The position numbers and the translations under genes were made by a program. From Eledone cirrhosa (lineage: Eukaryota), in NCBI GenBank assembly GCA_964016885.1, contig OZ024759.1, positions 27,032,001 to 27,096,000 on the forward strand: 64,000 bases of DNA, in the 5' to 3' direction. This document shows positions 2,235 to 42,780 of this stretch, piece after piece; within the stretch, counting starts at the first letter, position 1; each line of letters begins with the position of its first letter. The notes under the pieces were generated by a model that saw only the letters and a program-made list of their open reading frames with translations, did no database searches and had not been told where the DNA came from.

Positions 2235-2980
2235 TGATGCCATGCATTGTATTGTACACTTCGACATATGAATTACGTTCATGCAACACTTCTCTTATCA
2301 TAGCCATTTTTTGTGGTGAGCAGTCATTATTTGTTGGTACTAGGGCAGTGGATTGGCAGTATCGGTAGAGCGCCAGACACCATGCTTTACAGCATAGGGT
2401 TATGGCCATTTACGTTCTGGGTTCAAATCTCTCCAAGGTTGACTTTGTTTTCATCCTTATGAGGTCGATAGAATAAAGTACCAGTAATTGCTGGCCTTGT
2501 GCCAGAAACAATTATTTGGTTGTACTTCCAATCTGTGCTACACACCTTCGTTCCCATCAATAATATATAACTGGCCATATTGTGGTGTATTTTCTGCAGG
2601 TTACAGAGATGGGGGTGTAGTGATATGTTTGACCCTGAATATGAAAGCTATACGGGCCTCTGCCGGGTGGTAACACCAAATGAAGTGAAATAAATGTAGT
2701 TTTAATTGCAGATGTTTCTGTGAAATCAACTGCTTCCTGGCCTCTTTCAAAGAGATTTCTCAGTCTCTCAGGGTATATTTGCAATGGTGGCAACACAACC
2801 TTTCCTTTATTACAACAGTTACAATTTTCATTTCTAAATTTCAAAGCTCCACAGTGATCACACGAAACATTCATATCACTAATATGAAATTCTTCTACAT
2901 TTCCATTAATATTAATTGTTGGCCAATTTCTCTTACAACGCTCATTATCCATTCTTCTCTGTCTGAATGTTTTCCATTCT
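2235..2980 (-). pseudogene. Helitron Rep/Hel N-terminal fragment
   Basis: CDHCGALKFRNENCNCCNKGKVVLPPL (Helitron N-terminal Cys cluster), PPGRGPYSFHIQGQTYH and REVLHERNSYV; interrupted by a SINE and frameshifts. Confidence 0.9.
2343..2517 (+). mobile_element. tRNA-derived SINE inserted antisense into the Helitron
   Basis: tggcagtatcggtagagcg A-box-like, gggttcaaatc B-box, same core as 1506; flanked by an imperfect 15-bp duplication ttatttgttggtact / ttatttggttgtact. Also at ~29106, ~41991, ~52103, ~61583. Confidence 0.8.
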
Positions 2981-3339
2981 GTTGTTTATTATGTAATTAA
3001 ATAGCTCTGTACAATACATAGAGCATTCTTCTTTTCTTTACCTTTTCTATGGAAATACAAGAACAAACATGTAAATATATATATATATGTATATACATAA
3101 ACAAGACTGTTATTGCTCCAACCAGTCTATTTACCTTTGATAACTATCCTAAATATAAATACACCTATACCATACATACATATATCATATATGTTTTTGA
3201 TGCCGTGGTATAGCAGAGATAAGCAAGAAGAGAAAAGAAAATGAAAAGGAGAAAAAAAAAGAAGTAAGAAGTCGGGGGAGGGACAGACACTTCACCCCAG
3301 TCTAAGTGGTCCCTCAGCCGCAACCTGTGGAAGAAACTT

Positions 3340-3530
3340 AAAAGCGTTACCTCGGAGCAAGGCCAGAGACACCTGCTACAATAGTCGCCCCTCCTCATGA
3401 GGCTCCTGTCATCTTTCCTCCCGACTTTATGGAGGAAATCAGCAGTACAGGGACCAAGTATGGCAGAGGTCTCAATGGAGTGGAAGAGGTGAGTCAGGCC
3501 TTGGTACTATCTTACTATCCTCTGCATTGC
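3340..3530 (-). mobile_element. CRE-like non-LTR retrotransposon 3' fragment (restriction-like endonuclease tail), decayed
   Basis: Manual translation with frameshifts: AEDSK..YQGLTHLF..IETSAILGPCTADFLHKVGRK..TG..EG.LL*QVSLALLRGNAF. This matches the E-T-x-G ... SLAxxRGNA C-terminus of CRE-clade proteins. Confidence 0.7.
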
Positions 3531-3559
3531 GGGGTGTGGAGCCTAGGTTTGTGGCTGTA

Positions 3560-3686
3560 GCTATATTTGAACTTTTATATGAAATTTCAGTTTTATATTT
3601 TTCACATCATAAAACTTAATCTTAGTCTTTTGCAGCTCATCTTGTTTCATCTCGCAGCACACGATTTGGGAACCACTGCTCTAGAG
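3560..3686 (-). mobile_element. hAT/Charlie-type transposon end with target-site motif
   Basis: tttgggaaccactg (reverse of CAGTGGTTCCCAAA) ends at 3678 and is followed by ctctagag, the NTCTAGAN target typical of Charlie hATs. Partner end not found; inner boundary approximate. Confidence 0.7.
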
Positions 3687-4010
3687 ATAGAAAAAGTATA
3701 TTTTATGCAGGGCTTCCCTGAGACATAAAAACTATTTCAAGAGATCGACATGGGTAGAAAGGTTGAGAAATGCTGCACAATGTTCTTTGGTTTTTGTTCA
3801 CCTTTAAATAATCATGTATAAAATATCGGGTGTGCAAGATTTCATGAAAAGGTATAACATTTTTTATGCTGGTCTTGCAGGGACTAGCTCCAATTGAGAG
3901 TTGTACCAATTCCCACTAAACTCGAAACTCCTGGACAATATATACATATCTTTATAAGTTCCTGTGTATTGTGTCGCTGTATAATGAAACATAAATATAT
4001 ACCATGCATG

Positions 4011-4258
4011 TCAGTCAGATTTGAACTCACTATATTTGGCGTTTTATAGACATAATTTGTTTGTTAAAACAATTGATTAAATAATAACTAAATAAAATTA
4101 ATTCTACAATCCTGGATAGGGAATGAACTTATAACTTCATAATAGAAGCCATCTATTCGAGCAGTATTGCCATCTAAGCCACCAGGTTACCTACAGAACT
4201 TCATTCAAATATAAAATATAAAATATATGCCAGACATAGTGAGTTCGAATCTGACTGA
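4011..4258. mobile_element. MITE-like segment with 30-bp inverted termini
   Basis: tcagtcagatttgaactcactatatttggc (4011) versus gccagacatagtgagttcgaatctgactga (4229-4258): reverse complements with 3 mismatches. Confidence 0.65.
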
Positions 4259-4377
4259 TTAGTTGGTCATTGTCCCAGCCAACAGTTTAAATCGCCAACC
4301 AGTAGGTGACATCGACTAGGTTGGGAAAACTTGGTTAAGTAGCTCCAGTTATTGCTACGTTAGACATATTCAAGACT

Positions 4378-4482
4378 TATCGACACCGAATGGAAGAAAG
4401 GTAAAGTTGAACTCAGAGTAAAGAACAGGAAAAATACTGCAAAGAATGCTATCTGATGTTCTAACAATTCTACCAAATTACC
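4378..4482 (-). mobile_element. Highly decayed SINE, reverse orientation
   Basis: ttatcgacaccgaatggaagaaaggtaaagttgaactc ... ctaacaattctaccaaattacc is a reverse-complement relative of the SINE core and head at 1506. Confidence 0.55.
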
Positions 4483-4567
4483 TTATGTATATATATTTAT
4501 ATCTAGAGATAAGAAGAAAACTGAAAGAAAGAAAAGAAAAAAAATGAGACCTTATATGTAACCCATG

Positions 4568-5541
4568 TTACAACTCAATATATATATATTTGGGTTGTAA
4601 CATATTCCCGCCGGTGAAATAAAAATTTTAATAGAAAAACGGCGGGAATATATGTTACAACCCAATCTATATATATTTGAGTTGTAACATATATTCCCGC
4701 CGTTGAAATAAAAATTTTAATAGAAAAACGGCGGGAATATATGTTACAATCCAATCTAGATATATTTGGGTTGTAACATATATTCCCGCCGTTGAAATAA
4801 AAATTTTAATAGAAAACCGGCGGGAATATATGTTACAACCCAATCTATATATATTTGGGATGTAACATATATTCCCGCCGTTGAAATAAAAGTTTTAATA
4901 GAAAAACGGCGGGAATATATGTTGCAACCCAATCTACATATATTTGGGTTGTAACATATATTCCCGCCGTTGAAATAAAAATTTTAATAGAAATACGGCG
5001 GGAATATATGTTACAACCCAATCTATATATGTTTGGGTTGTAACATATATTCCCGCCGTTTTTCTATTAAAATTTTTATTTCAACGGCGGGAATATATGT
5101 TACAATCCAAATATATATAGATTGGGTTGTAACATATATTCCCGCCGTTTTTCTATTAAAATTTTTATTTCAACGGCGGGAATATATGTTACAACCCAAA
5201 TATTTATAGATAGGGTTGTAACATATATTCCCGCCATTTTTCTATTAAAATTTTTATTTCGACGGCGGGAATATGTTACAACCCAAATATATATAGATTG
5301 GGTTGTAACATATATTCCCGCCGTTTTTCTATTAAAATTTTTATTTCAACGGCGGGAATATATGTTACAACTCAAATATATATAGATTGGGTTGTAACAT
5401 ATATTCCCGCCGTTTTTCTATTAAAATATTTATTTCAACGGCGGGAATATATGTTACAACCCAAAAATATGTAGATTGGGTTGTAACATATATTCTCGCC
5501 GTTTTTCTATTAAAATTTTTATTTCACCGGCGGGAATATAT
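4568..5541. repeat. Array of ~89-bp hairpin units with a central orientation switch (about 11 units)
   Basis: Unit gggttgtaacatatattcccgccgtt-loop-aacggcgggaatatatgttacaaccc-spacer starts at ~4592, 4679, 4768, 4857, 4946; loops are reverse-complemented at ~5035, 5124, 5213, 5300, 5389, 5478. Confidence 0.95.
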
Positions 5542-5562
5542 ACCCTGAGAGACTGAGAAATC

Positions 5563-5915
5563 TCTTTCAAAGAGATTTCTCAGTCTCTCAGGGTATATTT
5601 GCAATGGTGGCAACACAACCTTTCCTTTTTTACAACAGTTACAATTTTCATTTCTAAATTTCAAAGCTCCACAGTGATCACACGAAACATTCATATCACT
5701 AATATGAAATTCTTCTACATTTCCATTAATATTAATTGTTGGCCAATTTCTCTTACGACGCTCATTATCGATTCTTCTCTGTCTGAATGTTTTCCATTCT
5801 AAGTCTATTTGCATGGAATAATTATATTCTGTTGTTTATTATGTAATTAAATAGCTCTGTACAATACATAGAGCATTCTTCTTTTCTTTACCTTTTCTAT
5901 GGAAATACAAGAACA

Positions 5916-5970
<55 letters not shown>

Positions 5971-7439
5971 ATATACATAAACAAGACTGTTATTGCTCCA
6001 ACCAGTCTATTTATCTTTGATAACTATCCTAGATATAAATACACCTATACCATACATACATATATCATATATGTTTTTGATGCCGTGGTATAGCAGAGAT
6101 AAGCAAGAAGAGAAAAGAAAATGAAAAGGAGAAAAAAAAAGAAGTAAGAAGTCGGGGGAGGGACAGACACTTCACCCCAGTCTAAGTGGTCCCTCAGCCG
6201 CAACCTGTGGAAGAAACGTAAAAGCGTTACCTCAGAGCAAGGCCAGAGACACCTGCAACAATAGTCGCCCCTCCTCATGAGGCTCCTGTCGTCTTTCCTC
6301 CCGACTTTATGAAGGAAATCAGCAGTACAGGGACCAAGTATGGCAGAGGTCTCAATGGAGTGGAAGAGGTGAGTCAGGCCTTGGTACTATCTTACTATCC
6401 TCTGCATTGCGGGGTGTGGAGCCTAGGTTTGTGGCTGTAGCTATATTTGAACTTTTATATGAAATTTCAGTTTTATTTTTTTCACATCATAAAACTTAAT
6501 CTTAGTCTTTTGCAGCTCATCTTGTTTCATCTCGCAGCACACGATTTGGGAACCACTGCTCTAGAGATAGAAAAAGTATATTTTATGCAGGACTTCCCTG
6601 AGACATAAAAACTATTTCCAGAGATCGACATGGGTAGAAAGGTTGAGAAATGCTGCACAATGTTCTTTGGTTTTTGTTCACCTTTAAATAATCATGTATA
6701 AAATATCGGGTGTGCAAGATTTCATGAAAAGGTATAACATTATTTATGCTGATCTTGCAGGGACTAGCTCCAATTGAGAGTTGTACCAATTCCCACTAAA
6801 CTCGAAACTCCTGGACAATATATACATATCTTTATAAGTTCCTGTGTATTGTGTCGTTGTATAATGAAACATAAATACATACCATGCATGTCAGTCAGAT
6901 TTGAACTCACTATATTTGGCGTTTTATAGATATAATTTGTTTGTTAAAACAATTGATTAAATAATAACTAAATAAAATTAATTCTACAATCCTGGATAGG
7001 GAATGAACTTATAACTTCATAATAGAAGCCATCTATTCGAGCAGTATTGCCATCTAAGCCACCAGGTTACTTACAGAACTTCATTCAAATATAAAATATA
7101 AAATATATGCCAGACATAGTGAGTTCGAATCTGACTGATTAGTTGGTCATTGTCCCAGCCAACAGTTTAAATCGCCAACCAGTAGGTGACATCGACTAGG
7201 TTGGGAAAACTTGGTTAAGTAGCTCCAGTTATTGCTACGTTAGACATATTCAAGACTTATCGACACCGAATGGAAGAAAGGTAAAGTTGAACTCAGAGTA
7301 AAGAACTGGAAAAATACTGCAAAGAATTCTATCTGATGTTCTAACAATTCTACCAAATTACCTTATGTATATATATTTATATCTAGAGATAAGAAGAAAA
7401 CTGAAAGAAAGAAAAATGAGACCTTATATGTAACCCATG
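5563..7439 (+). repeat. Direct repeat of 2743-4567 (Helitron N-fragment, CRE tail, hAT end, MITE, SINE)
   Basis: ORF pairs 3165/6045 and 3703/6583 are offset by 2880; scattered substitutions and a 30-bp indel distinguish the copies. Confidence 0.95.
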
Positions 7440-7989
7440 ACCAGGATTGAAACCGAAACCATGACTACCACCATCTCTGGTATCACCCACCAGACCACCA
7501 TGAAAGATACAAACATCTGCTTTTTTAATATTTATAAGCCTACTTTCAATATTAAAGTAATTAACATGTGGTGTTGTTCATGCCTTTCTCTATGTTATTG
7601 GTAAAAAATAAAGTATTTAAACCTCAAATTTTGTTATTCAAATATGCTTGCTTATGTAATTATAAATGTCGCAGAATACACACACATATATAGATGTGAA
7701 AATATTCAGGACCCCAACGGCTGTGCTACTGCCGTTTCGACATCTATATATATATCTTTTAGTCCTAGGCTCTTTCAGCGCAGAAAGAATTCTCCAATGA
7801 TCACAACCAGCTAATGGTGCCCAGTGGAAGCACTTTAGTCTAATTATAACCCCAACGATCACGATTAGCGGCGGCTTTTTCGAGTCTGAGGTTGACTGCC
7901 AGATATATATATATATCTATATATATATATATATTTTTTTATACTTTGCTAGAATCCCGGAGAACAACAGAAAGATGCTGAGTTCAGAG

Positions 7990-8277
7990 TTTAAAAAACA
8001 TGTCCCCCTTTAATATAAAAACAATCCGAGTCTTGTAAAAGTGTTATTACTGTAATATAAAGTAGAAACCCTTTATTTAAACAAAGCTGAGATGCAGCGA
8101 TCATCAAAGCAAACCCCAAAATGTAAACAAACTTCTCGCAGGTGCTGGCAGATACACGATAACATGTGTATACGAAGTGTAACAGGGAGTTGGGTCGTAT
8201 TATATGACTTTCAAATTGACCCCTATTATATTCAAATTATCCCCTGTGGGGCGTGCACCCCACGTTGAGAATCCCTC
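7990..8277 (-). mobile_element. hAT-derived MITE remnant
   Basis: Reverse strand begins gagggattctcaacgtggggtgcacgcccc (CAGGGGTTCTCAAC-type end); a fuller forward homolog with both ends lies at 56248-56580. Confidence 0.6.
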
Positions 8278-9164
8278 ATAAATAAATATATGTGAGTGTG
8301 TTGCTATGACTGCTATTTCTAGCAGGTTTACTGCAGTCCTGTAGACGCACAACAAAAACCGGAAGTGGCAGCCATTAAAAAACTTTGGCTTAAAATCAGG
8401 CAAAAGTTTTTTAACAATTTGCCAAGAAAGATAACTCTTGTCTTACTTAATCGCAAAAATCGAGGCAAAAAATGTTGCGGGTGTGCAGTTTGTTTGGTGT
8501 ATTTGACTGCTATTTCTAGCATATATGGACACTTTAGAAATAGCAGCGAAACACGGGAAACATAAGAAAGAAGGACACACACGTATATATATATACATAT
8601 ATATATGCACAGATATATACATTTAAATATATATATTTATATATACATATATATATGCACAGATATATACATTTAAATATATATATTTATATATACATAC
8701 ACGCGCGCACACACACCTATACGTAGATATGGGTGTGTGTATAGCTGGTATATATATATATATGTATGGGTGAGTGTATAGCTGGTATATATATATATAT
8801 ATATATATAGGTGTGTGTCCTTCTTTCTGCTGTTTTCCGTTTTTCGCTGCTATTTCTAAAGTGTCCATACATGCTAGAAATAGCAGTCAAATACACCAAA
8901 CAAACTGCACACCCGCAAAATTTTTGCCTCGATTTTTGCGATTAAGTAAGACAAGAGTTATCTTTCTTGGCAAATTGTTAAAAAACTTTTGCCTGATTTT
9001 AAGCCAAAGTTTTTTAATGGCTGCCACTTCCGGTTTTTGTTGTGCGTCTACAGGACTGCAGTAAACCTGCTAGAAATAGCAGTCATAGCAACACACTCAC
9101 ATATATTTATTTATGAGGGATTCTCAACGTGGGGTGCACGCCCCACAGGGGATAATTTGAATAT
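8228..9164. repeat. Long inverted repeat, ~350-bp arms around a TA/CA spacer
   Basis: 8228-8580 is the near-perfect reverse complement of 8812-9164; mirror ORFs 8200..8403(-) and 8989..9255(+) share their first 59 residues. Confidence 0.95.
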
Positions 9165-9762
9165 CCCCCTCTTTATATCAATTAGCACTAACTCTCTCCC
9201 TCTCTATATCTACTACACGGCACTCTCTTCCAATACCCCTCTCTATATGAAGTAACACCAAACTCTCCCCCTCTCTATATATTAAGCACTAAGTCAGGAA
9301 TTTTTTTCTTCTTTCGTGCAGAGAGAGTAAAGTTGATTAAATCTACTGCAGTGAATTACTGGTATTTTATTTAATAAAAATTAAAATTTACTATTTGTCT
9401 TCGTTTAATTTTCGTTTTTCTTTACATAGTTTCGTTTCGTTAAATGTCTCCAGAATTTGTTTTTACTTTTACCGGATATTGAAGGTGTAAACTTGGTGTT
9501 GTCTAGAAACGTGTTAGAAATATTTTTCTTTTAATTGTGAAGAATTTAACCGCAAAGTAAGTTTTTTTTACTGTTTATTTGTGGCTGGGACAACGTATGG
9601 TATGTGTTAATGTAAATGGTGAAGGTTTAAAGATTCTTTTTACAACTGAAAATCAGTTTGTTGTTGCTGCTAATTACTTAACGCATGGAATAGATTAAAA
9701 AAATACAGGATTGTTTCTCGGAAGAGAGAAAGAAGAAACAACAAATCACAGAAGCGGGTAGC

Positions 9763-9938
9763 ACACACATTTGGGACCACATACAACACAAAAACAGGTA
9801 ATCCACACATCTGGGACCACATACAACACACCAGCAGGTAATACATACATCTAGGACCACATAAGCAGGTAATACACACATCTAGGACCACATACAACAC
9901 ACAAGCAGGTAATACACACATCTAGGACGACATACAAC
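9763..9938 (+). repeat. ~40-bp minisatellite, about 4.5 copies
   Basis: ggaccacatacaacacacaagcaggtaatacacacatcta recurs at ~9774, 9814, 9854, 9885, 9925. Confidence 0.85.
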
Positions 9939-9980
9939 CAAAGGCAGGCGAAAGGGGTGGACAAACGAGCTGCTACTAGA

Positions 9981-10240
9981 TCAAAAGATAACAGTATCGC
10001 GAGGAGCACTGGGAAACCTCTCTAATGATTTTTTTAGGCAAGCCAGCACGTCTGCAGCGTTACCTCGGGCGATGGCGAGGCTGAGGAGCTGGAACAACCA
10101 AGTGCCCTCACGAGCTTCACCAGTCACCTTCGTCAGGCTAGCCGCCAGTGAAGATAGGAATCTCGCAGTCAGTATCCCGACTCCTTCAAACGCCACAGGC
10201 TGGAAAATGTAGTTGGCCGACAGATCACAGTATTACTTAA
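9981..10240 (-). mobile_element. CRE-like non-LTR retrotransposon 3' fragment (restriction-like endonuclease C-terminus)
   Basis: K*YCDLSANYIFQPVAFEGVGILTARFLSSLAASLTKVTGEAREGTWLFQLLSLAIARGNAADVL follows the KxxKY..FxPxAxE..TG..R..L.Q.LSLAIxRGNA pattern of CRE elements. Confidence 0.85.
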
Positions 10241-11130: not shown

Positions 11131-11315
11131 ACCAGGTGGTGAGCTGGCAACGACCAAGTGTAGAGGGCCAGCTTTGAAATTCGAGCGACGGAGTGAACTA
11201 GTAAAAGAGGCAGGGTAAGCAGCATTGGTTCTAACGGTGGGACTAGAACGGAGGTTGGGTGGTGCTGGGGGTGGGCTAACAGCTAACAGTTGTAGGAGTG
11301 GTGGGGGTTTGCTAG

Positions 11316-12923
11316 GATTAATTTTTACATCTGTCTGTGAACTCTTGAAAAAGCAACATACAATTGTCCAGGGTTAAATACTTGCTCAGGGAGGAACAGA
11401 CCCACTTTATCATGTATTTGACCATGGTTCTTGTTGATTGTCATGGCATATGACAGTCTTAATGGAAACTGGGGTCTTTCCAAAGTAAAAGGGATGTTGG
11501 CACCACTGGGGGATAACTTCAGTCTTGGGATCAAAACACACCTGCCCATGAAAGGACCATAGATATGAGAAGCTTTGATAAAATGTTTATGCAGTTCTAC
11601 TACTTCTAATCTTGTGCCATTACATAATCTGTTCTGGATTGAAATATTCCATAGAAGCATTATTATTGATCCTGCTTATAATTGGAGTTTGTGAGGCGGC
11701 ATCCCAGAAGGTGTAAGCAAGTTCATTTAGCTTGAACCAGGCAGCAAGGGTCCCTGCATTTCTACCACAACCTGAGCATTGCCTCTTTGAAAGTAAACTC
11801 TGTTTGTTCTCCAGGTGTGTGGCTAGGCTGTACACTGTATGTGATGCACCATGAAGCTTAAATTCCGAGAGACACGACACTGCTTCTGGCTGAGACACAT
11901 ACCTGCAACAAAGATAGGTTCTTATTTCATCATGGTTGTGTTGGTTCTGAGCCTCATTAGGTAATGCATTATTCGTTACTTCTATAGATGTACAATCATG
12001 CCCCATGTAACATATTTAAAGAGGTACTTGACACTTTTTACAGAAGCGCAAACTTCAACATTAATATGTGCACAATATTTCTTAAGCAAAAAGGCATTAA
12101 ATGGCATAACATTCCTGTTATCTACTGAATGTCATCCAATTTACACTGCAGTTCCTGTCTTGCACCTCCTGTACTCTGGGTATCCATTTAGGTTCAATAA
12201 TGTTTCCCTTCTGTAGGTTTTTGGATAGTTCTTTTTGAAAAATCCATTTTGTATAAATGGGGGAAAAGGGTTTCCAGAACCACATGGCCTGTGGATCATA
12301 AACTTTTAAACCTGCTCATGTAGTACTGGATCATCTTCCAATGCAGGTATTTCTGCTGACACGATTCTGTCAATGTCTTCTCTGTTTCTTATCTTGTCTT
12401 CATTTTTTAAGGCTCAGTGTTATCATCTGTTTAGATAATTCATTAAACCATTATACTCATCCACTCACAATTGGGCTTGATTGTTCCTCAAATATTGAAG
12501 CCTGCATCCCTCTACTTTCATATAGGCATCCACTAAATACTGCTAAAATAATTTACCTGCCCTATATATCGCACTAAATCCTCCTCTATATGCTATACAG
12601 TATATGTAATACTCCTGCATTGTCAGTCTATTGCAAACACAGGTCCTACATTCCTCTCCATGGCACTATGCCACCAAAATTCACCATTATCGGTCGGTCA
12701 TGAGGTCCAAGTGGCATGAATTATGTGGTATTTTCTGAGGAGGATGGTCTTTAGGAAAGATGATAATATCTCTTTGTACAGGTGGTGTGCCCTCAATCCC
12801 CCACAAAACAACAGCTATCATTACTAGTTGGTAAATTAGAGCAGCTCATATCTGATCCTCTTCTAAATCTTAATTCACAGTTCTGTACACGACAATTTTC
12901 TCTTCTTGCACTTTGCTGTTTGA
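11316..12923 (-). pseudogene. Helitron Rep/Hel (Rep remnant plus PIF1-helicase C-terminus), internally deleted
   Basis: GKLF*QYLVDAYMKVEGCRL, DIDRIVSAEIP, MIHRPCG, GYPEYRR, AHINVEVCASVKSVKYLFKYV, RYVSQPEA, TPSGMPPHKLQLK, LCNGTRL, QFPLRLSYAMTINKNHGQ, GQLYVAFSRV; several stops and frameshifts. Confidence 0.95.
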
Positions 12924-13931
12924 GATGAAACAAGATAGCAATGTCCATAACATTACATGTCAGAATTATTAGCCACAGGGGCAGAGATGTCCATAACATT
13001 ACATGTCAGAATTATTAGCCACCGGGGCAGAGATGTCCATAACATTACATGTCAGAATTATTAGCCACAGGGGCAGAGATGTCCATAACATTACATGACA
13101 GAATTATTAGCCACAGGGGCAGAGATGACCATAACATTACATGACAGATTTATTAGCCACAGGTGCAGAGATGACCATAACATTACATGACAGAATTATT
13201 AACCACAGGGGCAGAGATGACCATAACATTACATGACAATTATTAGCCCCAGGGGCAGATATGTCCATAACATTACATGACAGAGTTTCATCTCGCGCTC
13301 TCTCTCTCTCGTTTCATCTCGCTCTCTCTCTCTCTCGTTTCATCTCTGTCTTCCTCTCTCTCATTTCATCTCTGTCTTCCTCTCTCTCGTTCCATCTCTC
13401 TCTTCCTCTCTCTCGTTCCATCTCTCTCTTCCTCTCTCTCGTTTCATCACTCTCTCTCGTTTCATCTCTATTTCTCTCTCTCGTTTCATCTGTCTCTCTC
13501 TCTGTCGTTTCATCTCCCTCTATCTCTCTCTCGCTCTCTCATTTCATCTCTCTCTCCCTCTCGTTTCATCTCGCTCTCTCTCTCCTGTTTCATCTCGCTC
13601 TCTCTCTCCTGTTTCATCTCGCTCTCTAGTCTCGTTTCCTCTCTCTCTCATTTCATCTCGCTCTCTCTCTCTCATTTCATCTCGCTCTCACTCTCTCTCA
13701 TTTCATCTCGCTCTCTCTCTCTCATTTCATCTCGCTCTCACTCTCTCATTTCATCTCGCTCTCACTCTCTCTCATTTCATCTCGCTCTCTCTCTCTCTCT
13801 CGTTTCATCTCGCTCTCTCTCTCTCATTTCATGTCGCTCTCACTCTCTCTCATTTCATCTCGCACTCACTCTCTCATTTCATCTCGCTCTCTCTCTCTCT
13901 CGTTTCATCTCGCTCTCTCTGTCTCATTTCA

Positions 13932-13970
<39 letters not shown>

Positions 13971-14184
13971 TCATCTCGCTCTCTCTCTCTCTCATTTCAT
14001 CTCACTCTCTCTCTCTCTCGTTTCATCTCGCTCTCACTCTCTCATTTCATCTCGCTCTCTCTCTCTCGTTCCATCTTGCTCTCTCTCTCTCTTCCTCTCT
14101 CTCTTGTTTCAACACTCTAATCCCTCACTTGTTTCATCTCTCTCTAATCCCTCACTTGTTTCATCTCTCTCTTGTTTCAATTCG

Positions 14185-14215
<31 letters not shown>

Positions 14216-14217
14216 CC
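12924..14217 (+). repeat. Left part of the 2.6-kb insert: 46-bp array plus CT block, cut by the gap
   Basis: Matches 39246-40531; starts gatgaaacaagatagcaatgtccataac directly after Helitron ...gctgtttga. Confidence 0.9.
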
Positions 14218-14417
14218 NNNNNNNNNNNNNNNNNNNNNNNNNNNNNNNNNNNNNNNNNNNNNNNNNNNNNNNNNNNNNNNNNNNNNNNNNNNNNNNNNNN
14301 NNNNNNNNNNNNNNNNNNNNNNNNNNNNNNNNNNNNNNNNNNNNNNNNNNNNNNNNNNNNNNNNNNNNNNNNNNNNNNNNNNNNNNNNNNNNNNNNNNNN
14401 NNNNNNNNNNNNNNNNN
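14218..14417. other. Assembly gap (200 N)
   Basis: Run of N of round length, so probably a placeholder; true size and orientation across it are unknown. Confidence 0.99.
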
Positions 14418-17400
14418 TCTGACATGTAATGTTATGGACATCTCTGCCCTGTGGCTAATAATTCTGACATGTAATGTTATGGACATCTCTGCCCCTGTGG
14501 CTAATAATTCTGAGAGAGATGAAACAAGTGAGGGATTAGAGAGAGATAAAACAAGTGAGGGATTAGAGTGTTGAAACAAGAGAGAGAGAGGAAGAGAGAG
14601 AGAGAGCGAGATGAAATGAGACAGGGAGAGCGAGATGAAACACGAGAGTGAGAGAAGCGAGATGAAACGAGAGAGTGAGAGCGAGATGAAACGAGAGAGA
14701 GAGAGAGCGAGATGAAACGAGACAGAGAGAGCGAGATGTAATGAGAGAGAGAGAGAGCGGGATGGAACGAGACAAAGAGGAAACGAGAGAGAGGAAACGA
14801 GAGTAGAGAGCGAGATGAAACGAGAGGGAGAGAGAGATGAAACGAGAGAGCGAGAGAGAGATGAAACGAGGGAGATAGAGATGAAACGAGAGAGAGAAAG
14901 AGAGAGATGGAACGAGAGAGAGGAAGAAAGAGATGAAACGAGAGAGAGAGAGAGCGAGATGAAACGAGAGAGAGAGAGCGCGAGATGAAACGAGAGAGAG
15001 AGAGCGCGAGATGAAACGAGAGAGAGAGAGCGCGAGATGAAACGACAGAGAGAGAGACAGATAAAAGGAGGGAGATAGAGATGAAACGAGAGAGAGGAAG
15101 ATAGAGATGGAACGAGAGAGAGCAAGAGAGAGATGGAACGAGAGAGAGGAAGACAGAGATGAAACGAGAGAGAGAGAGAGCGAGATGAAACTCTGTCATG
15201 TAATGTTATGGACATATCTGCCCTTGGGGCTAATAATTGTCATGTAATGTTATGGACATCTCTGCCCCTGTGGCTAATAATTCTGTCATGTAATGTTATG
15301 GACATCTCTGCCCCTGTGGCTAATAATTTTGTCATGTAATGTTATGGACATCTCTGCCCTGTGGCTAATAATTCTGACATGTAATGTTATGGACATCTCT
15401 GCCCCTGTGGCTAATAATTCTAAGAGAGATGAAACAAGTGAGGGATTAGAGAGAGATAAAAAAGTGAGGGATTAGAGTGTTGAAACAAGAGAGAGAGAGG
15501 AAGAGAGAGAGAGAGAGCGAGATGAAATGAGACAGGGAGAGCGAGATGAAACGAGACAGAGAGGAAACGAGAGAGAGGAGACGAGAGTAGAGAGCGAGAT
15601 GAAACAGAAGAGAGAGAGCGAGATGAAACGAGAGGGAGAGAGAGATGAAACGAGTGAGCGAGAGAGAGATGAAACGAGGGAGATAGAGATGAAACGAGAG
15701 AGAGGAAGAGAGAGATGGAACGAGAGAGAGGAAGAGAGAGAGGAAGACAGAGATGAAACGAGAGAGAGAGAGAGCGAGATGAAATGAGAGAGAGAGAGCG
15801 CGAGATGAAACGAGAGAGAGAGAGAGCGCGAGATGAAACGACAGAGAGAGAGACAGATGAAAGGAGGGAGATAAAGATGAAACGAGAGAGAGGAAGAGAG
15901 AGATGGAACGAGAGAGAGGAAGAGAGAGAGGAAGACAGAGATGAAACGAGAGAGAGAGAGAGCGAGAGGAAACGAGAGAGAGAGAGCGCAAGATGAAACG
16001 AGAGAGAGAGAGCGCGAGATGAAACTCTGTCATGTAATGTTATTGACATATCTGCCCCTGTGGCTAATAATTCTGTCATGTAATGTTATGGTCATCTCTG
16101 CCCCTGTGGCTAATAATTCTGTCATGTAATGTTATGGACATCTCTGCCCCTGTGGTTAATAATTCTGACATGTAATGTTATGGTCATCTCTGCGCCTGTG
16201 GCTAATAATTCTGAGAGAGATGAAACAAGTGAGGGATTAGAGTGTTGAAACAAGAGAGAGAGAGCGAGATGAAATGAGAGAGTGTGAGCGAGATGAAACG
16301 AGACAGGGAGAGCGAGATGAAACGAGAGAGTGAGAGCGAGATGAAACGAGAGAGTGAGAGCGAGATGAAACGAGAGAGAGAGAGCGAGATGAAATGAGAG
16401 AGAGAGAGCGAGATGAAATGAGAGAGAGAGAGCGAGATGAAACGAGACAGAGAGAGAACGAGATGAAACGAGAGAGTGAGAGCGAGATGAAACGAGAGAG
16501 AGAGAGCGAGATGAAACGGGAGGGAGAGAGAGATGAAACGAGAGAGAGTGGAAACGAGAGTAGAGAGCGAGATGAAACAGGAGAGAGAGAGAGCGAGATG
16601 AAACAGGAGAGAGAGAGCGAGATGAAACGAGAGGGAGAGAGAGATGAAACGAGAGAGCGAGAGAGAGATGAAACGAGGGAGATAGAGATGAAACGAGAGA
16701 GAGGAAGAGAGAGATGGAACGAGAGAGAGGAAGATAGAGATGGAACGAGAGAGAGGAAGACAGAGATGAAACGAGAGAGAGAGAGAGCGAGATGAAACAG
16801 GAGAGAGAGAGCGAGATGAAACGAGAGGGAGAGAGAGATGAAACGAGAGAGCGAGAGAGAGATGAAACAAGGGAGATAGAGATGAAACGAGAGAGAGGAA
16901 GAGAGAGATGGAACGAGAGAGAGGAAGAGAGAGATGGAACGAGAGAGAGGAAGACAGAGATGAAACGAGAGAGCGAGATGAAACGAGAGAGAGAGAGAGC
17001 GAGAAGAAACGAGAGAGAGGAAGAGAGAGAGCGCCAGATGAAACTCTGTCATGTAATGTTATGGACATATCTGCCCTTGGGGCTAATAATTGTCATGTAA
17101 TGTTATGGACATCTCTGCCCCTGTGGCTAATAATTCTGAGAGAGATGAAACAAGTGAGGGATTAGAGAGAGATAAAACAAGTGAGGGATTAGAGTGTTGA
17201 AACAAGAGAGAGAGAGAGCGAGATGAAACGCGATAGTGAGAGAAGCGAGATGAAACGAGAGAGTGAGAGCGAGATGAAACGAGAGAGAGAGAGAGCGAGA
17301 TGAAACGAGACAGAGAGAGCGAGATGTAATGAGAGAGAGAGCGAGCGGGATGGAACGAGACAGAGAGGAAACGAGAGTAGAGAGCGAGATGAAACGAGAG

Positions 17401-20400
17401 GGAGAGAGAGATGAAACGAGAGAGCGAGAGAGAGATGAAACGAGGGAGATAGAGATGAAATGAGAGAGAGGAAGAGAGAGATGGAACGAGAGAGAGGAAG
17501 ACAGAGATGAAACGAGAGAGAGAGAGAGCGAGATGAAACGAGACAGAGAGAGCGCGAGATGAAACGAGAGAGAGAGAGCACGAGATGAAACGACAGAGAG
17601 AGAGACAGATGAAAGGAGGGAGATAGAGATAAAACGAGAGAGAGGATGAGAGAGATGGAACGAGAGAGAGGAAGAGAGAGATGGAACGAGAGAGAGGAAG
17701 ACAGAGATGAAACGAGAGAGAGAGAGAGCAAGATGAAACGAGAGAGAGAGAGCGCGAGATGAAACTCTATCATGTAATGTTATTGATATATCTGCCCCTG
17801 TGGCTAATAATTGTCATGTAATGTTATGGTCATCTCTGCCCCTGTGGCTAATAATTCTGTCATGTAATGTTATGGACGTCTCCGCCCCTGTGGCTAATAA
17901 CTCTGACATGTAATGTTATGGACATCTCTGCCCTGTGGCTAATAATTCTGACATGTAATGTTATGGACATCTCTGCCCCTGTGGCTAATAATTCTGAGAG
18001 AGATGAAACAAGTGAGGGATTAGAGAGAGATAAAACAAGTGAGGGATTAGAGTGTTGAAACAGGAGAGAGAGAGCGAGATGAAACGCGATAGTGAGAGAG
18101 GCGAGATGAAACGAGAGAGTGAGAGCGAGATGAAACGGGACAGAGAGAGCGAGATGTAATGAGAGAGAGAGAGAGCGGGATGGAACGAGACAGAGAGGAA
18201 ACGAGAGTAGAGAGCGAGATGAAACGAGAGGGAGAGAGAGATGAAACGAGAGAGCGAGAGAGAGATGAAACGAGGGAGATAGAGATGAAACGAGAGAGAG
18301 GAAGAGAGAGATGGAACGAGAGAGAGGAAGACAGAGATGAAACGAGAGAGAGAGCGAGATGAAACGAGAGAGAGAGAGCGCAAGATGAAACGAGAGAGAG
18401 AGAGCGCGAGATGAAACGACAGAGAGAGAGACAGATGAAAGGAGGGAGATAGAGATGAAACGAGAGAGAGGAAGAGAGAGATGGAACGAGAGAGAGGAAG
18501 ACAGAGATGAAACGAGAGAGAGAGCGAGATGAAACGAGAGAGAGGAAGAGAGAGAGCGCGAGATGAAACTCTCTCATGTAATGTTATCGACATATCTGCC
18601 CTTGGGGCTAATAATTGTCATGTAATGTTATGGACATCTCTGTCCCTATGGCTAATAATTCTGTCATGTAATGTTATGGACATCTCTGCCCCTGTGGCTA
18701 ATAATTCTGTCATGTAATGTTATGGACATCTCTGCCCCTGTGGCTAATAATTCTGACATGTAATGTTATGGACATCTCTGCCCCTGTGGCTAATAATTCT
18801 GCCATGTAATGTTATGGACATCTCTGCCCTGTGGCTAATAATTCTGACATGTAATGTTATGGACATCTCTGCCCCTGTGGCGAATAATTCTGAGAGAGAT
18901 GAACCAAGTGAGGGATTAGAGAGAGATAAAACAAGTGAGGGATTAGAGTGTTGAAACAAGAGAGAGAGAGGAAGAGAGAGAGAGAGCGAGATGAAACAAG
19001 AGAGTGAGAGAGGCGAGATGAAACGAGAGAGTGAGAGCGAGATCAAACGAGAAAGAGAGACAGCGAGATGAAACGAGACAGAGAGGAAACGAGAGAGAGA
19101 GGAAATGAGAGAGAGGAAACGAGAGTAGAGAGCGAGATGAAACAGGAGAGAGAGAGCGAGAAGAAACGAGCGGGAGAGAGAGATGAAACGAGAGAGCGAG
19201 AGAGAGATGAAACGAGGGAGATAGAGATGAAACGAGAGAGAGGAAGAGAGAGATGGAACGAGAGAGAGGAAGACAGAGATGAAACGAGAGAGAGAGAGAG
19301 CGAGATAAAACGAGACAGAGAGAGCGCGAGATGAAACGAGAGAGAGAGAGCGCGAGATGAAACGACAGAGAGAGAGACAGATGAAAGGAGGGAGATAGAG
19401 ATGAAACGAGAGAGAGGATGAGAGAGATGGAACGAGAGAGAGGAAGAGAGAGATGGAACGAGAGAGAGGAAGACAGAGATGAAACGAGAGAGAGAGCAAG
19501 ATGAAACGAGAGAGAGAGAGCGCAAGATGAAACGAGAGAGAGAGAGCGCGAGATGAAACTCTGTCATGTAATGTTATTGACATATCTGTCCCTGTGGCTA
19601 ATAATTGTCATGTAATGTTATGGTCATCTCTGCCCCTGTGGCTAATAATTCTGTCATGTAATGTTATGGACATCTCTGCCCTTGTGGCTAATAATTCTGA
19701 GATATATTAAACAAGTGAGGGATTAGAGTGTTGAAACAAGAGAGAGAGAGCGAGAAGAAATGAGAGAGTGAGAGCGGGATGAAATGAGAGAGAGAGAGCG
19801 AGATGAAACGGGAGGGAGAGAGAGATGAAACGAGAGAGAGAGGAAACGAGAGAGAGAGGAAACGAGAGTAGAGAGCGAGATGAAACAAGAGAGAGAGAGA
19901 GCGAGATGAAACAGGAGAGAGAGAGCGAGATGAAACGAGAGGGAGAGAGAGATGAAACGAGAGAGCGAGAGAGAGATGAAACAAGGGAGATAGAGATGAA
20001 ACGAGAGAGAGGAAGAGAGAGATGGAACGAGAGAGAGGAAGAGAGAGATGGCACGAGAGAGAGGAAGACAGAGATGAAACGAGAGAGAGAGAGCGAGATG
20101 AAACGAGAGAGAGAGAGCGCGACATGAAACGAGAGAGAGAGAGCGCTAGATGAAACGACAGAGAGCGAGACAGATGAAAGAAGGGAGATAGAGATGAAAC
20201 GAGAGAGAGGAAGAGAGAGATGGAACGAGAGAGAGGAAGACAGAGATGAAACGAGAGAGAGAGAGAGCAAGATGAAACGAGAGAGAGAGAGAGCGCAAGA
20301 TGAAACGAGAGAGAGGAAGAGAGAGATGGAACGAGAGAGAGGAAGAGAGAGATGGCACGAGAGAGAGGAAGACAGAGATGAAACGAGAGAGAGAGAGCGA

Positions 20401-20957
20401 GATGAAACGAGAGAGAGAGAGCGCAAGATGAAACGAGAGAGAGAGAGCGCGAGATGAAACGACAGAGAGAGAGACAGATGAAAGAACGGAGATAGAGATG
20501 AAACGAGAGAGAGGAAGAAAGAGATGGAACGAGAGAGAGGAAGAGAGAGATGGAACGAGAGAGAGGAAGACAGAGATGAAACGAGAGAGAGAGCGAGATG
20601 AAACGAGAGAGAGGAAGACAGAGATGAATCGAGAGAGAGGGAGAGCGAGATGAAACGAGAGAGAGAGCGCGCAAGATGAAACTCTGTCATGTAATGTTAT
20701 TGACATATCTGCCCCTGTGGCTAATAATTGTCATGTAATGTTATGGTCATCTCTGCCCCTGTGGCTAATAATTCTGTCATGTAATGTTATGGACATCTCT
20801 GCCCCTGTGGCTAATAATTCTGACATGTAATGTTATGGACATCTCTGCCCTTGTGGCTAATAAATCTGACATGTAATGTTATGGAAATCTCTGCCCCTGT
20901 GGCTAATAATTCTGTCATGTAATGTTATGGAAATCTCTGCCCCTATGGCTAATAAAT
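14418..20957 (-). repeat. Higher-order satellite, reverse orientation: seven GA-rich blocks alternating with 46-bp arrays
   Basis: GA blocks start at ~14512, 15421, 16213, 17138, 17996, 18892, 19699; each starts near gagagagatgaaacaagtgagggattag and ends near gatgaaactctgtcatg. Confidence 0.95.
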
Positions 20958-23900
20958 CAGAATTATTAGCCACAGGGGCAGAGATGTCCATAACATTACA
21001 TGTCAGAATTATTAGCCACAGGGGCAGAGATGTCCATAACATTACATGACAGATTTATTAGCCACAGGGGCAGAGATGTCCATAACATTACATGTCAGAT
21101 TTATTAGCCACAGGGGCAGAGATGTCCATAACATTACATGTCAAAATTATTAGCCACAGGGGCAGAGATGTCCATAACATTACATGACAGATTTATTAGC
21201 CACAGGGGCAGAGATGTCCATAACATTACATGACAGAATTATTAGCCACAGGGGCAGAGATGTCCATAACATTACATGACAGAATTATTAGCCACAGGGG
21301 CAGAGATTTCCATAACATTACATGACAATTATTAGCCCCAAGGGCAGATATGTCCATAACATTACATGACAGACTTTCATCTCGCGCTCTCTCTCTCGTT
21401 TCATCTCACGCTCTCTCTCTTCCTCTCTCTCGTTTCATCTCGCGTTCTCTCTCTTCCTCTCTCTCGTTTCATCTCGCTCTCTCTCTCGTTTCATCTCTGT
21501 CTTCCTCTCTCTCGTTCCATCTCTCTCTTCCTCTCTCTCGTTCCATCTCTCTCTTCCTCTCTCTCGTTTCATCTCTCTCTCTCGTTTCATCTCTATCTCC
21601 CTCGTTTCATCTGTCTCTCTCTCTGTCGTTTCATCTCCCTCTATCTCTCTCTCGCTCTCTCGTTTCATCTCTCTCTCCCTCTCGTTTCATCTCGCTCTCT
21701 CTCTCCTGTTTCATCTCGCTCTCTCTCTCCTGTTTCATCTCGCTCTCTACTCTCGTTTCCTCTCTCTCGTATCCTCTCTCTCGTTTCCTCTCTCTCTCGT
21801 TTCCTCTCTCTCTCGTTTCCTCTAGCTCTCACTCTCTCGTTTCATCTCGCTCTCTCTCTCTCATTTCATCTCGCTCTCTCTCTCTCGTTTCATATCGCTC
21901 TCACTCTCTCATTTCATCTCGCTCTCTCTCTCTCGTTTGATCTCGCTCTCACTCTCTCTTCCTCTCTCTCTCTTGTTTCAACACTCTAATCCCTCACTTG
22001 TTTCATCTCTCTCTTATCCCTCACTTGTTTCATCTCTCTCAGAATTATTAGCCACAGGGGCAGAGATATCCATAACATTACATGTCAGAATTATTAGCCA
22101 CAGGGGCAGAGATGTCCATAACATTACATGACAGATTTATTAGCCACAGGGGCGGAGATGTCCATAACATTACATGACGAATTTATTAGCCACAGGGGCA
22201 GAGATGTCCATAACATTACATGACAGAATTATTAGCCACAGGGGCAGAGATGTCCATAACATTACATGACAGAATTATTTGCCACAGGGGCAGAGATGTA
22301 CATAACATTACATGACAATTATTAGCCCCAAGGGCAGATATGTCCATAACATTACATGACAATTATTAGCCCCAAGGGCAGATATTTCCATAACATTACA
22401 TGACAGACTTTCATCTCGCGCTCTCTCTCTTCCTCTCTCTCGTTTCATCTCGCTCTCTCTCTCTCGTTTCATCTCGCTCTCTCTCTCTCTCGTTTCATCT
22501 CGCGCTCTCTCTCTTCCTCTCTCTCGTTTCATCTCGCTCTCTCTCTCGTTTCATATCTGTCTTCCTCTCTCTCGTTCCATCTCTCTATTCCTCTCTCTCT
22601 CGTTTCATCTAGCTATCACTCTCCCGTTTCATCTCCCTCTATCTCTCTCTCGCTCTCTCGTTTCATCTCTCCCTCCCTCTCATTTCATCTCGCTCTCTCT
22701 CTCCGGTTTCATCTCGCTCTCTCTCTCTCCTGTTTCATCTTGCTCTCTACTCTCGTTTCCTCTCTCTCGTTTCCTCTCTCTCGTTTCCTCTATCTCTCGT
22801 TTCCTCTCTCTCTCGTTTCATCTAGCTCTCACTCCCTCGTTTCATCTCGCTCTCTCTGACTCGTTCCATCTCGCTCTCACTCTCTCGTTTCATCTCGCTC
22901 TCTCTCTCTCATTTCATCTCGCTCTCTCTCTCTCATTTCATCTCGATCTCTCTGTCTCGTTTCATCCCGCTCTCTCTGTCTCGTTTCATCTCGCTCTCTC
23001 TCTCTCATTTCATCTCGCTCTCTCTCTCTCATTTCATCTCGCTCTCTCTCTCTCTCTCGTTTCATCTCACTCTCAATCTCTCATTTCATCTCGCTCTCTC
23101 TCTCTCATTTCATCTCGCGCTCTCTCTCTTCCTCTCTCTCGTTTCATCTCGCTCTCTCTCTCTTCCTCTCTCTCGTTTCATCTCGCTCTCTCTCTCTCGT
23201 TTCATCTTGCGCTCTCTCTCTTCCTCTCTCTCGTTTCATCTCGCGCTCTCTCTCTTCCTCTCTCTCGTTTCATCTTGCTCTCTCCCTCTCTCGTTTCATC
23301 TCGCGTTCTCTCTCTTCCTCTCTCTCGTTTCATCTCTGTCTTCCTCTCTCTCGTTCCATCTCTCTCTTCCTCTCTCTCGTTCCATCTCTCTCTTCCTCTC
23401 TCTCGTTTCATCTCTCTCTCTCGTTTCATCTCTATCTCCCTCGTTTCATCTGTCTCTCTCTCTGTCGTTTCATCTCCCTCTATCTCTCTCTCGCTCTCTC
23501 GTTTCATCTCTCTCTCCCTCTCGTTTCATCTCGCTCTCTCTCTCCTGTTTCATCTCGCTCTCTCTCTCCTGTTTCATCTCGCTCTCTACTCTCGTTTCCT
23601 CTCTCTCGTATCCTCTCTCTCGTTTCCTCTCTCTCTCGTTTCCTCTCTCTCTCGTTTCCTCTAGCTCTCACTCTCTCATTTCATCTCGCTCTCTCTCTCT
23701 CGTTTCATCTCGCTCTAATCTGTCTCGTTTCATTTCGCTCTCTCTCTCTCTCGTTTCATTTCGCTCTCTCTGTCTCGTTTCATCTCGCTCTCTCTCTCTC
23801 ATTTCAACTCGCTCTCTCTCTCTCATTTCATCTCGCTCTCTCTCTCTCGTTTCATATCGCTCTCACTCTCTCATTGCATCTCGCTCTCTCTCTCTCGTTT

Positions 23901-26900
23901 GATCTCGCTCTCACTCTCTCTTCCTCTCTCTCTCTTGTTTCAACACTCTAATCCCTCACTTGTTTCATCTCTCTCTTATCCCTCACTTGTTTCATCTCTC
24001 TCAGAATTATTAGCCACAGGGGCAGAGATATCCATAACATTACATGTCAGAATTATTAGCCACAGGGGCAGAGATGTCCATAACATTACATGACAGATTT
24101 ATTAGCCACAGGGGCGGAGATGTCCATAACATTACATGACGAATTTATTAGCCACAGGGGCAGAGATGTCCATAACATTACATGACAGAATTATTAGCCA
24201 CAGGGGCAGAGATGTCCATAACATTACATGACAGAATTATTTGCCACAGGGGCAGAGATGTACATAACATTACATGACAATTATTAGCCCCAAGGGCAGA
24301 TATGTCCATAACATTACATGACAATTATTAGCCCCAAGGGCAGATATGTCCATAACATTACATGACAGACTTTCATCTCGCGCTCTCTCTCTTCCTCTCT
24401 CTCGTTTCATCTCGCTCTCTCTCTCTCGTTTCATCTCGCTCTCTCTCTCTCTCGTTTCATCTCGCGCTCTCTCTCTTCCTCTCTCTCGTTTCATCTCGCT
24501 CTCTCTCTCTCTCGTTTCATATCTCTCTTCCTCTCTCTCGTTCCATCTCTCTATTCCTCTCTCTCTCGTTTCATCTAGCTATCACTCTCTCGTTTCATCT
24601 CCCTCTATCTCTCTCTCGCTCTCACGTTTCATCTCTCCCTCCCTCTCATTTCATCTCGCTCTCTCTCTCCGGTTTCATCTCGCTCTCTCTCTCTCCTGTT
24701 TCATCTTGCTCTCTACTCTCGTTTCCTCTCTCTCGTTTCCTCTCTCTCGTTTCCTCTCTCTCGTTTCCTCTCTCTCTCATTTCCTCTCTCTCTTGTTTCA
24801 TCTAGCTCTCACTCTCTCGTTTCATCTCGCTCTCTCTGACTCGTTCCATCTCGCTCTCACTCTCTCGTTTCATCTCGCTCTCTCTCTCTCATTTCATCTC
24901 GCTCTCTCTCTCTCATTTCATCTCGATCTCTATGTCTCGTTTCATCCCGCTCTCTCTGTCTCGTTTCATCTCGCTCTCTCTCTCTCATTTCATCTCGCTC
25001 TCTCTCTCTCATTTCATCTCGCTCTCTCTCTCTCTCTCGTTTCATCTCACTCTCAATCTCTCATTTCATCTCGCTCTCTCTCTCTCATTTCATCTCGCGC
25101 TCTCTCTCTTCCTCTCTCTCGTTTCATCTCGCGCTCTCTCTCTTCCTCTCTCTCATTTCATCTCGCTCTCTCTCTCTCGTTTCATCTTGCGCTCTCTCTC
25201 TTCCTCTCTCGTTTCATCTCGCTCTCTCTCTCTCATTTCATCTCGATCTCTCTGTCTCGTTTCATCCCGCTCTCTCTGTCTCGTTTCATCTCGCTCTCTC
25301 TCTCTCATTTCATCTCGCTCTCTCTCTCTCATTTCATCTCGCGCTCTCTCTCTTCCTCTCTCTCGTTTCATCTCGCGCTCTCTCTCTTCCTCTCTCTCGT
25401 TTCATCTCGCTCTCTCTCTCTCTCTCGTTTCATCTTGCGCTCTCTCTCTTCCTCTCTCTCGTTTCATCTCGATCTCTCTCTGTCTCGTTTCATCTCTGTC
25501 TTCCTCTCGCTCGTTCCATCTCTCTCTTCCTCTCTCTCGTTCCATCTCTCTCTTCCTCTCTCTCGTTTCATCTCTCTCTCTCGTTTCATCTCTGTCTTCC
25601 TCTCTCTCGTTCCATCTCCCTCTTCCTCTCTCTCGTTACATCTCTCTCTTCCTCTCTCTCGTTTCATCTCTCTCTCTCGTTTCATCTCTATCTCCCGCGT
25701 TTCATCTGTCTCTCTCTCTGTCGTTTCATCTCCCTCTATCTCTCTCTCGCTCTCTCGTTTCATCTCTCTCTCCCTCTCGTTTCATCTCGCTCTCTCTCTC
25801 CTGTTTCATCTCGCTCTCTCTCTCCTGTTTCATCTCGCTCTCTACTCTCGTTTCCTCTCTCTCGTTTCGTCTCTCTCGTTTCCTCTCTCTCTCGTTTCAT
25901 CTAGCTCTCCCACTCTCGTTTCATCTCGCTCTCTCTGTCTCGTTCCATCTCGCTCTCACTCTCTCGTTTCATCTCGCTCTCTCTCTCTCATTTCATCTCG
26001 CTCTCTCTCTCTCATTTCATCTCGCGCTCTCTCTCTCGTTTCATCTCGCTCTCTCTGTCTCGTTTCATCTCGCTCTCGCTCTCTCTGTCTCGTTTCATCC
26101 CGCTCTCTCTCTCTCATTTCATCTCGCTCTCTCTCTCTCTCATTTCATCTCGCTCTCTCTCTCTCTCTCGTTTCATCTCGCTCTCACTCTCTCATTTCAT
26201 CTCGCTCTCTCTCGTTTGATTTCGCTCTCACTCTCTCTTCCTCTCTCTCTCTTGTTTCAACACTCTAATCCCTCACTTGTTTCATCTCTCTCAGAATTAT
26301 TAGCCACAGGGGCAGAGATGTCCATAACATTACATGTCAGAATTATTAGCCACAGGGGCAGAGATGTCCATAACATTACATGACAGATTTATTAGCCACA
26401 GGGGCAGAGATGTCCATAACATTACATGACGAATTTATTAGCCACAGGGGCAGAGATGTCCATAACATTACATGTCAGAATTATTAGCTACAGGGGCAGA
26501 GATGTCCATAACATTACATGTCAGAATTATTAGCCACAGGGGCAGAGATGTCCATAACATTACATGACAGATTTATTAGCCACAGGGGCAGAGATGTCCG
26601 TAACATTAAATGACAGATTTATTAGCCACAGGGGCAGAGATTCCATAACATTACATGTCAGAATTATTAGCCACAGGGGCAGAGATTTCCATAACATTAC
26701 ATGACAGAATTATTAGCCACAGGGGCAGAGATGTCCATAACATTACATGACAGAATTATTAGCCACAGGGGCAGAGATGTCCATAACATTACATGACAAT
26801 TATTAGCCCCAGGGGCAGATATGTCCATGACAGAGTTTCATCTCTCGCTCTCTCTCTTCCTCTCTCTCGTTTCATCTCGCTCTCTCTCTCGTTTCATCTC

Positions 26901-42748: not shown

Positions 42749-42780
<32 letters not shown>

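Follow-up and report, generated by a model that had tools for sequence, protein, structure and literature searches.

The human mariner-type miniature transposon (MITE) Made1 is about 80 bp in size. MITEs of this group are described as arising by internal deletion (PMC3814204, PMC5753468), and Made1, in the account given in PMC3814204, is a tiny deletion derivative of Hsmar1 whose ends are joined at a short shared word and which has TA flanks and a hairpin fold. The repeat unit that we describe here from Eledone cirrhosa resembles Made1 in each of these respects; unlike Made1 it has another parent and another terminal inverted repeat (TIR), and one copy of it became a tandem chain. Octopus vulgaris is reported to hold many Tc1-mariner and MITE families (PMC13282606).

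Several described systems share parts of this arrangement. In Acropora corals, full-size MITEs (CMITEs) occur in tandem arrays (PMC2872659) and, as in the present array, whole MITEs stand in tandem with similar spacers and slippage rather than transposition is invoked. The CMITEs, however, are of the piggyBac/TTAA type, and the sections of that paper dealing with the arrays make no mention of an orientation switch, of capture from a donor by a recipient, or of isomers. The Xenopus Xstir/Angel fold-back repeats (PMC12628747, PMC9659126) are likewise tandem repeats derived from MITEs and associated with replication stem-loops, but according to those accounts Xstir units come from internal MITE sequence and lie inside a mobile MITE, whereas the present array consists of whole units, lacks outer ends and is not mobile. 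Strand switching at short pre-existing inverted repeats is known from ODIRA as outlined in PMC10766183, and hairpin-primed synthesis that creates microhomology from the snap-back form of SD-MMEJ as outlined in PMC5728401; both resemble our case, although those mechanisms were established experimentally in yeast and fly, while ours is read from junctions and involves ~1 kb from a distant donor. In the literature that we covered, mostly open papers, we found no description of a chain of whole MITEs folded at a TIR within a duplication joint; the MITE itself may already be listed in a repeat library.

Results

A folded array of 89-bp units lies between two copies of a duplicated segment

The window, by which we mean the whole 64,000-nucleotide stretch analysed, lies on contig C20 of the 3.0-Gb E. 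cirrhosa genome, in a young macrosatellite with 10–27-kb blocks of 97–99% identity. Self-comparison and parsing gave the following features, each array being flanked by two copies of a 1.8-kb segment X.

2742–4567, forward strand: segment X, first copy of the tandem duplication (self-comparison and parse)
4568–5541, no strand assigned: array of 11 whole mariner-MITE units with spacers, 5 forward and 6 reversed, both ends within a TIR
5035–5058, forward strand: TIR marking the change of orientation (forward spacer, stem, reversed loop; array parse)
5562–7439, forward strand: segment X', second copy, 98% identical, followed by empty-site flank (self-comparison and parse)
31331–32037, no strand assigned: second flipped array, 3 forward and 5 reversed units, with identical junctions (parse and census)
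42390–44134, forward strand: empty macrosatellite unit, a single X without array (parse)
52502–54251, forward strand: second empty macrosatellite unit, a single X without array (parse)

The array at 4568–5541 parsed as a partial stem followed by repeats of a stem (S), a 26-nt loop A, the complementary stem (S') and a 15-nt spacer b, with five forward loops and then six reverse-complemented ones, and TRF gave a period of 89 bp (11.0 copies). The observation is confirmed as real: stem, both loops, period and ~1-kb inverted arrangement were found as the first-pass annotation of the window had described them, and the switch of both loops to their reverse complements after five units, also noted there, maps to the stem at 5035–5058. 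That annotation overlooked the array at 31331–32037 and the position of the main array within a tandem-duplication joint. The stem motif matched 32 times in the window (0 in 100 shuffles), and a single unit folded at −31.2 kcal/mol (z −11.6). Rfam at gathering score gave no matches over positions 2700–7500. Over the ~1-kb inverted layout, arms of up to 279 nt are 96% identical. The earlier wording, a "palindrome of palindromes", holds at the level of the consensus but not for private variants, which do not follow a mirror order between the arms, so the arms are not fresh copies of each other.

The unit is almost certainly a mariner-derived MITE

With near certainty, a miniature mariner transposon plus a spacer makes up the 89-base hairpin unit, and the units are chained head-to-tail. 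One monomer within the array is delimited as follows.

4766–4843, forward strand: one monomer, a 78-bp MITE with 26–28-bp TIRs, identical at 70/79 aligned columns to the dispersed copy L036

The exact stem 21-mer occurred 1101 times genome-wide, and the first nine places listed were lone matches on six contigs, each a single ~79-bp element with unrelated flanks; a commoner stem variant had 162 exact matches, the first 100 listed falling on C1–C9. Distinct dispersed monomers (n = 37) were parsed from loci fetched by stem matches, a sample biased to well-kept copies. All were short, non-coding elements of 75–81 bp with 26–28-bp TIRs, and TA flanked them on both sides in 27/37 and on at least one side in 37/37, as a TA target duplication would leave it; many of them sit in TA tracts. 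Monomers thus exist as dispersed, TA-flanked elements and not only as concatemers, a point on which the first-pass annotation had asked for a check, and its suggestion that the unit is related to a MITE is borne out by mariner TIRs with a parent in the same genome.

The monomer shares its TIRs with elements of the D,D34D transposase type (L120, L131 and L132). The first parent copy, L120, was found through a Pfam PF01359 match adjoining a stem match, and four further near-full copies were 86–90% identical to it (40 of 96 candidates scored). L132 measures 1483 bp between its TA flanks, and its 26-bp repeats have 0 and 1 mismatches. Frames of L131 matched HTH_48 (PF17906), Transposase_1 (PF01359) and DDE_3 (PF13358) and contain the WVPHEL and D,D34D motifs (34-residue spacing counted by eye); a whole frame was present in none of the five near-full parent copies examined, all of which are broken. 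The dispersed monomer L036 unites 35 nt from the start of the parent with ~50 nt from its end: its 5' part is identical to the first 35 nt of L132, and its 3' end matches L132 at 47/50 columns. Judged from these alignments, the unit is a deletion derivative in which the two ends of a D,D34D mariner, itself present in broken form in this genome, are joined. Joining the two ends gives the TIR-core-TIR, or stem-loop-stem, order of the unit, and chaining of whole MITEs then produces the same order along the array, making a dumbbell unnecessary.

The best 30 Pfam PF01359 loci included none with such a TIR. A pair of TIRs 1.4 kb apart (L047/L048) was considered as a parent and rejected, being two monomers in an inverted duplication; at L047:1400–3021 the two MITE copies are inverted 1.4 kb apart, with a further internal palindrome at ~1640–2150. 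The parent transposase (L131:1647–2249) is 80–82% identical to unnamed 348-aa proteins in other assemblies, a level that would be as expected for a horizontally spread mariner.

The flipped array was inserted once and spread as satellite cargo

Exact patterns for the left junction matched 82 times and those for the right 84 times, all on C18, C20 and C25, and complete flipped arrays of 4–15 units were parsed on the same contigs (n = 88 arrays; 18 on C18, 14 on C20 and 56 on C25). Both junctions were common to 88/88 arrays, letter for letter at the start in 84/88 and at the end in 87/88. A single flip was present in 86/88, and the two remaining arrays had three flips each, arising from tandem duplication of the flip unit. 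The flip was of the spacer-stem-loop type in 63 arrays and of the loop-stem-spacer type in 25. Since the stem 21-mers of the flipped arrays (1074), of the sister array described below (18) and of dispersed elements (9) sum to 1101, the assembly contains no additional array with exact matches. We found no array with its own termini and target duplications at an unrelated site among these; one junction pair is common to all 88, which means that the array has not been mobile as a unit. It was inserted once and then spread as satellite cargo. The possibility that it is the internal repeat region of a foldback/MULE-like mobile element, which the first-pass annotation had itself raised, was rejected, as it has no termini of its own, both ends are broken TIRs and the junctions are shared by 88/88.

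Context stretches matched the window unit in 13/15 cases and belong to the same macrosatellite, which also carries the remnant of a Helitron.

11301–12920, reverse strand: broken Helitron RepHel remnant in the carrier macrosatellite unit (Pfam PF14214, E 6e-8; PF21530, E 1e-11)

The frame of this remnant has 20 stops in 540 codons. It lies ~6 kb from the array and belongs to the carrier satellite. Directly upstream of the frame, a 46-bp repeat and a CT/GA-rich repeat occupy 12941–28070 and 62420–64000 in long runs with several strand switches (GC-skew reversals); these may derive by expansion from parts of the Helitron 5' coding region. Each macrosatellite unit also has a ~940-bp self-inverted stretch (8228–9164; 90%), an apparent fold-back, and the segment at 9255–9985 resembles a small non-autonomous Helitron with 40-bp internal repeats, which recur at L025:3139–3715, and a CTAG end. 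At G000:C18 34.99–35.00 Mb (L179), four units of array plus X stand in direct tandem with a 2.68-kb period, forming a nascent higher-order satellite.

An unflipped sister array is the likely donor

A search for TA-ended stems identified a sister array at C25:14,586.7–14,587.7 kb with about 11 units, all forward. This array has TIRs at both outer ends, flanks unlike the satellite, and a first loop close to that of the dispersed MITE. Mean identity of its units was 92% to the flipped arrays and 80% to dispersed copies, compared with 96% among flipped units. A T variant is present in both TIRs of the sister and flipped arrays and in both TIRs of none of the 37 dispersed copies; nine dispersed copies have it in one arm (eight loci having been picked for the T variant). 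One private spacer variant is also common to the sister and flipped arrays. The sister's left flank, once reverse-complemented and shortened by one base, equals the common spacer of the flipped arrays, which points to a strand switch at that flank.

Among empty-type X ends (n = 101), three lie on the same contig, C25, 90–131 kb from the sister array, in satellite units without any TIR; by a rough count the chance of such closeness between donor and empty units is about 0.2%. These comparisons make the sister array the likely donor of the flipped arrays. About 8% of columns separate donor from flipped units, fixed changes in the loops among them, so the link would be one of descent and not of exact copying. 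A tree of X copies (mean divergence 1.1%; a short truncated copy and the partial L216 copy left out) did not place the three near-donor units basally and was uninformative on the origin of the insert. Searching by the array's own loop gave no closer donor on C1–C17 among the first 100 of 709 places.

Junctions, fold-backs and inversion isomers

Both ends of the array coincide with short inverted sequences.

4557–4572, no strand assigned: left junction, snap-back hairpin with 6-bp arms (1-bp arm at the empty site; weak fold, z −3.0)
5538–5598, no strand assigned: right junction, perfect palindrome with 30-bp arms, grown from a palindrome with 6-bp arms at the empty site

Microhomology to the TIR was 3 nt at the left junction (8 nt with the snap-back counted) and 4 nt at the right. 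The left snap-back amounts to only 5 added bases and is readable as TIR sequence alone. Followed from its outer end toward the middle, each arm begins in the AT core of the TIR and runs in the same sense as the other. The flip likely came from a hairpin-mediated strand switch, in which respect the first reading was right. Both inversion junctions lie on pre-existing short inverted repeats, the TIR pair and the 6-bp palindrome, as ODIRA would have it, but the triplication with a full inverted middle copy that goes with that mechanism was not found here. Only about 24 nt of X are inverted beyond the original palindrome, so that an ODIRA route must assume a secondary deletion.

An extra TIR was present at 3 of 42 dispersed loci. 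Two of these, L056 (G000:C2:193.43 Mb) and L061 (G000:C2:53.366 Mb), are end duplicates with an exact 40-bp inverted copy and private variants, one of them centred on (TA)9. The L061 locus is a perfect palindrome with 40-bp arms and its own private variants, by its sequence an independent fold-back of the MITE found in the array.

Central array segments occur in both orientations across copies. When an array on C25 was compared with one on C18, the first 180 nt matched forward with 0 mismatches, whereas the central 180 nt matched with 0 mismatches when reversed versus 17 forward. Some array copies are inversion isomers of each other, and recombination between the inverted arms thus flips the centre and moves the switch point.

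Reads from another study cover both junctions

Parts of the stretch were present in 6/10 listed runs from two studies, a further run (X8) coming from a third; run X1 may derive from the source sample. RNA runs with the stretch were absent from the listing, which has no bearing on expression. Raw RAD Illumina reads of X8 gave continuous depth over the left junction (~50–85 reads) and the right (~17–28 reads), while no read or contig spanning the whole array was seen in the runs covered. In run X4 (organism B), a contig joins X to the array with 18 letters left of the joint in one comparison and 27, as a loose end, in another, below the 31-letter bar, and there was no depth at the right junction. 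Over window positions 4330–4700 and 5430–5780, the sole unit contig of this run has the second-unit variant, at a depth near that of the junction. There is a hint that organism B holds a much shorter array, contig depth giving no copy number. Run X6 (organism C) contained part of X, with no depth on the array and nothing on the right junction, in contigs that cannot show absence.

Discussion

The array is a MITE-derived folded minisatellite of single origin whose history is preserved to an unusual degree; it represents a variant of routes already known and not a new replicon. As a chain of mariner MITEs likely copied by repair and spread by a satellite, it is probably a fossil of repair and not a new hairpin element capable of replicating itself. 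Probably, host break repair working from two ends placed a copy of the chain in the joint of a 1.8-kb duplication, and the copy then became a satellite passenger. Host template-switching repair without a transposase or HUH step is very likely; the two-ended route in particular is our tentative choice, held at a little short of even confidence. Along this route, slippage would have turned a single MITE copy, set in a TA tract at C25:14.587 Mb, into a head-to-tail chain, with at least one U-turn at a TIR as the founder chain formed. A break in a nearby satellite unit would have left two 3' ends, each of which formed a snap-back, primed within the AT-rich centre of the TIR and copied the same strand of the donor chain. 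Annealing of the two copied arms TIR-to-TIR would give exactly one flip, and unequal exchange could then have spread the unit, changed its copy number and inverted its centre. Against this stand ~1 kb of templated sequence, far more than the hairpin-primed synthesis reported in PMC5728401, and a duplex donor, which makes same-strand copying by both ends a 50% event; nor does the assembly hold an intermediate, that is, an unflipped array in the X junction, among the 88.

A dogbone, or ODIRA-type, inverted amplification would begin with X joined to a short forward chain. Switches at the TIR and at the 6-bp palindrome with which X begins would cap a ~2.5-kb hairpin-ended piece, whose inverted dimer would integrate through X, most of the inverted X being deleted later; serial single-ended switching (MMBIR) would give the same product. 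Two U-turns within 1 kb, both on pre-existing short inverted repeats, fit such a course, as does a private base of the first loop that reappears, mirrored, in the last loop of many arrays on C20 and C25, and yeast is described in PMC10766183 as yielding such products together with secondary loss of one arm. Yet the mirrored base is absent from the C18 arrays and from several on C20 and C25, the order of variants is unmirrored, and an unseen precursor and a 1.8-kb deletion are required; we consider this course unlikely. A later inversion is more doubtful by far: an unflipped chain would have been inserted first, and recombination of an inner TIR with the last half-TIR would have inverted the right part before the spread. 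Arm inversions do occur here, as the 63 and 25 arrays of the two flip types and the isomer pairs attest, but the route needs its second breakpoint to lie within a terminal half-TIR of 14 nt, and unflipped copies number 0/88. An assembly artefact from fold-back reads is scarcely credible. Long palindromes are prone to chimeric reads and no spanning read was seen; the array nonetheless has 88 copies on three contigs with heritable private variants, and raw reads from another study cover both junctions.

A template set free as a single strand is another candidate for what the two break ends copied. It could be a MITE hairpin or circle outside the chromosome, as in the Angel-MITE model (described in section 4 of PMC12628747), or a transcript copied by a Penelope-type reverse transcriptase; such a template would force both arms into one sense, as is observed reading inward. 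Both arms also start in the same TIR AT core, and the two points of one TIR at which the chain begins and stops are almost complementary. However, with a DNA donor chain ~90 kb away a free template is unnecessary, the insertion site is not a TA tract, the census of 88 arrays records only one such capture, and a one-unit circle from the founder site would pair a forward loop with a reversed spacer, an unusual combination in the arrays; we regard this reading as improbable. Integration of an opened circle was given little weight, the complementary start and end points lying in the AT core, where microhomology is easiest. The first-pass annotation had favoured the integrated product of a tiny hairpin replicon, or a substrate of an HUH/Helitron enzyme, made by rolling-hairpin or rolling-circle copying. 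The order of the unit does fit a dumbbell, and 6 kb separate the array from a Helitron remnant, but the unit is a mariner deletion derivative whose ends are TIRs with a parent in the genome, and one junction pair in 88 arrays speaks for one insertion event. Rolling-hairpin flip/flop would alternate at each turn, where a single flip is seen in 86/88 and the three-flip pair are tandem duplications of the flip unit, and the Helitron is broken and marks the carrier satellite. We have accordingly all but abandoned this proposal.

With the candidate hairpin replicon removed, what is left is a well-preserved lineage leading from a mariner to a MITE, a tandem chain, a folded insert and a satellite passenger; no host function of the array is indicated. 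We think it quite unlikely that a single-stranded MITE chain (hairpin, circle or RNA) was copied from both break ends and sealed TIR-to-TIR. If true, the released single strand would make this a fully preserved case of transposase-free MITE multiplication, with parent, monomer, donor chain, empty target, product and flip-flop isomers all in one genome and the first natural support that we have found for an Angel-type extrachromosomal route, and some related organism may still retain a shorter stage. Transposase-free multiplication of MITEs and the seeding of satellites by them are debated mostly from models. The donor, empty site, junctions and 88 descendants found here make models of MITE multiplication comparable, and the inversion isomers are a natural marker of short-inverted-repeat recombination in an animal germline.
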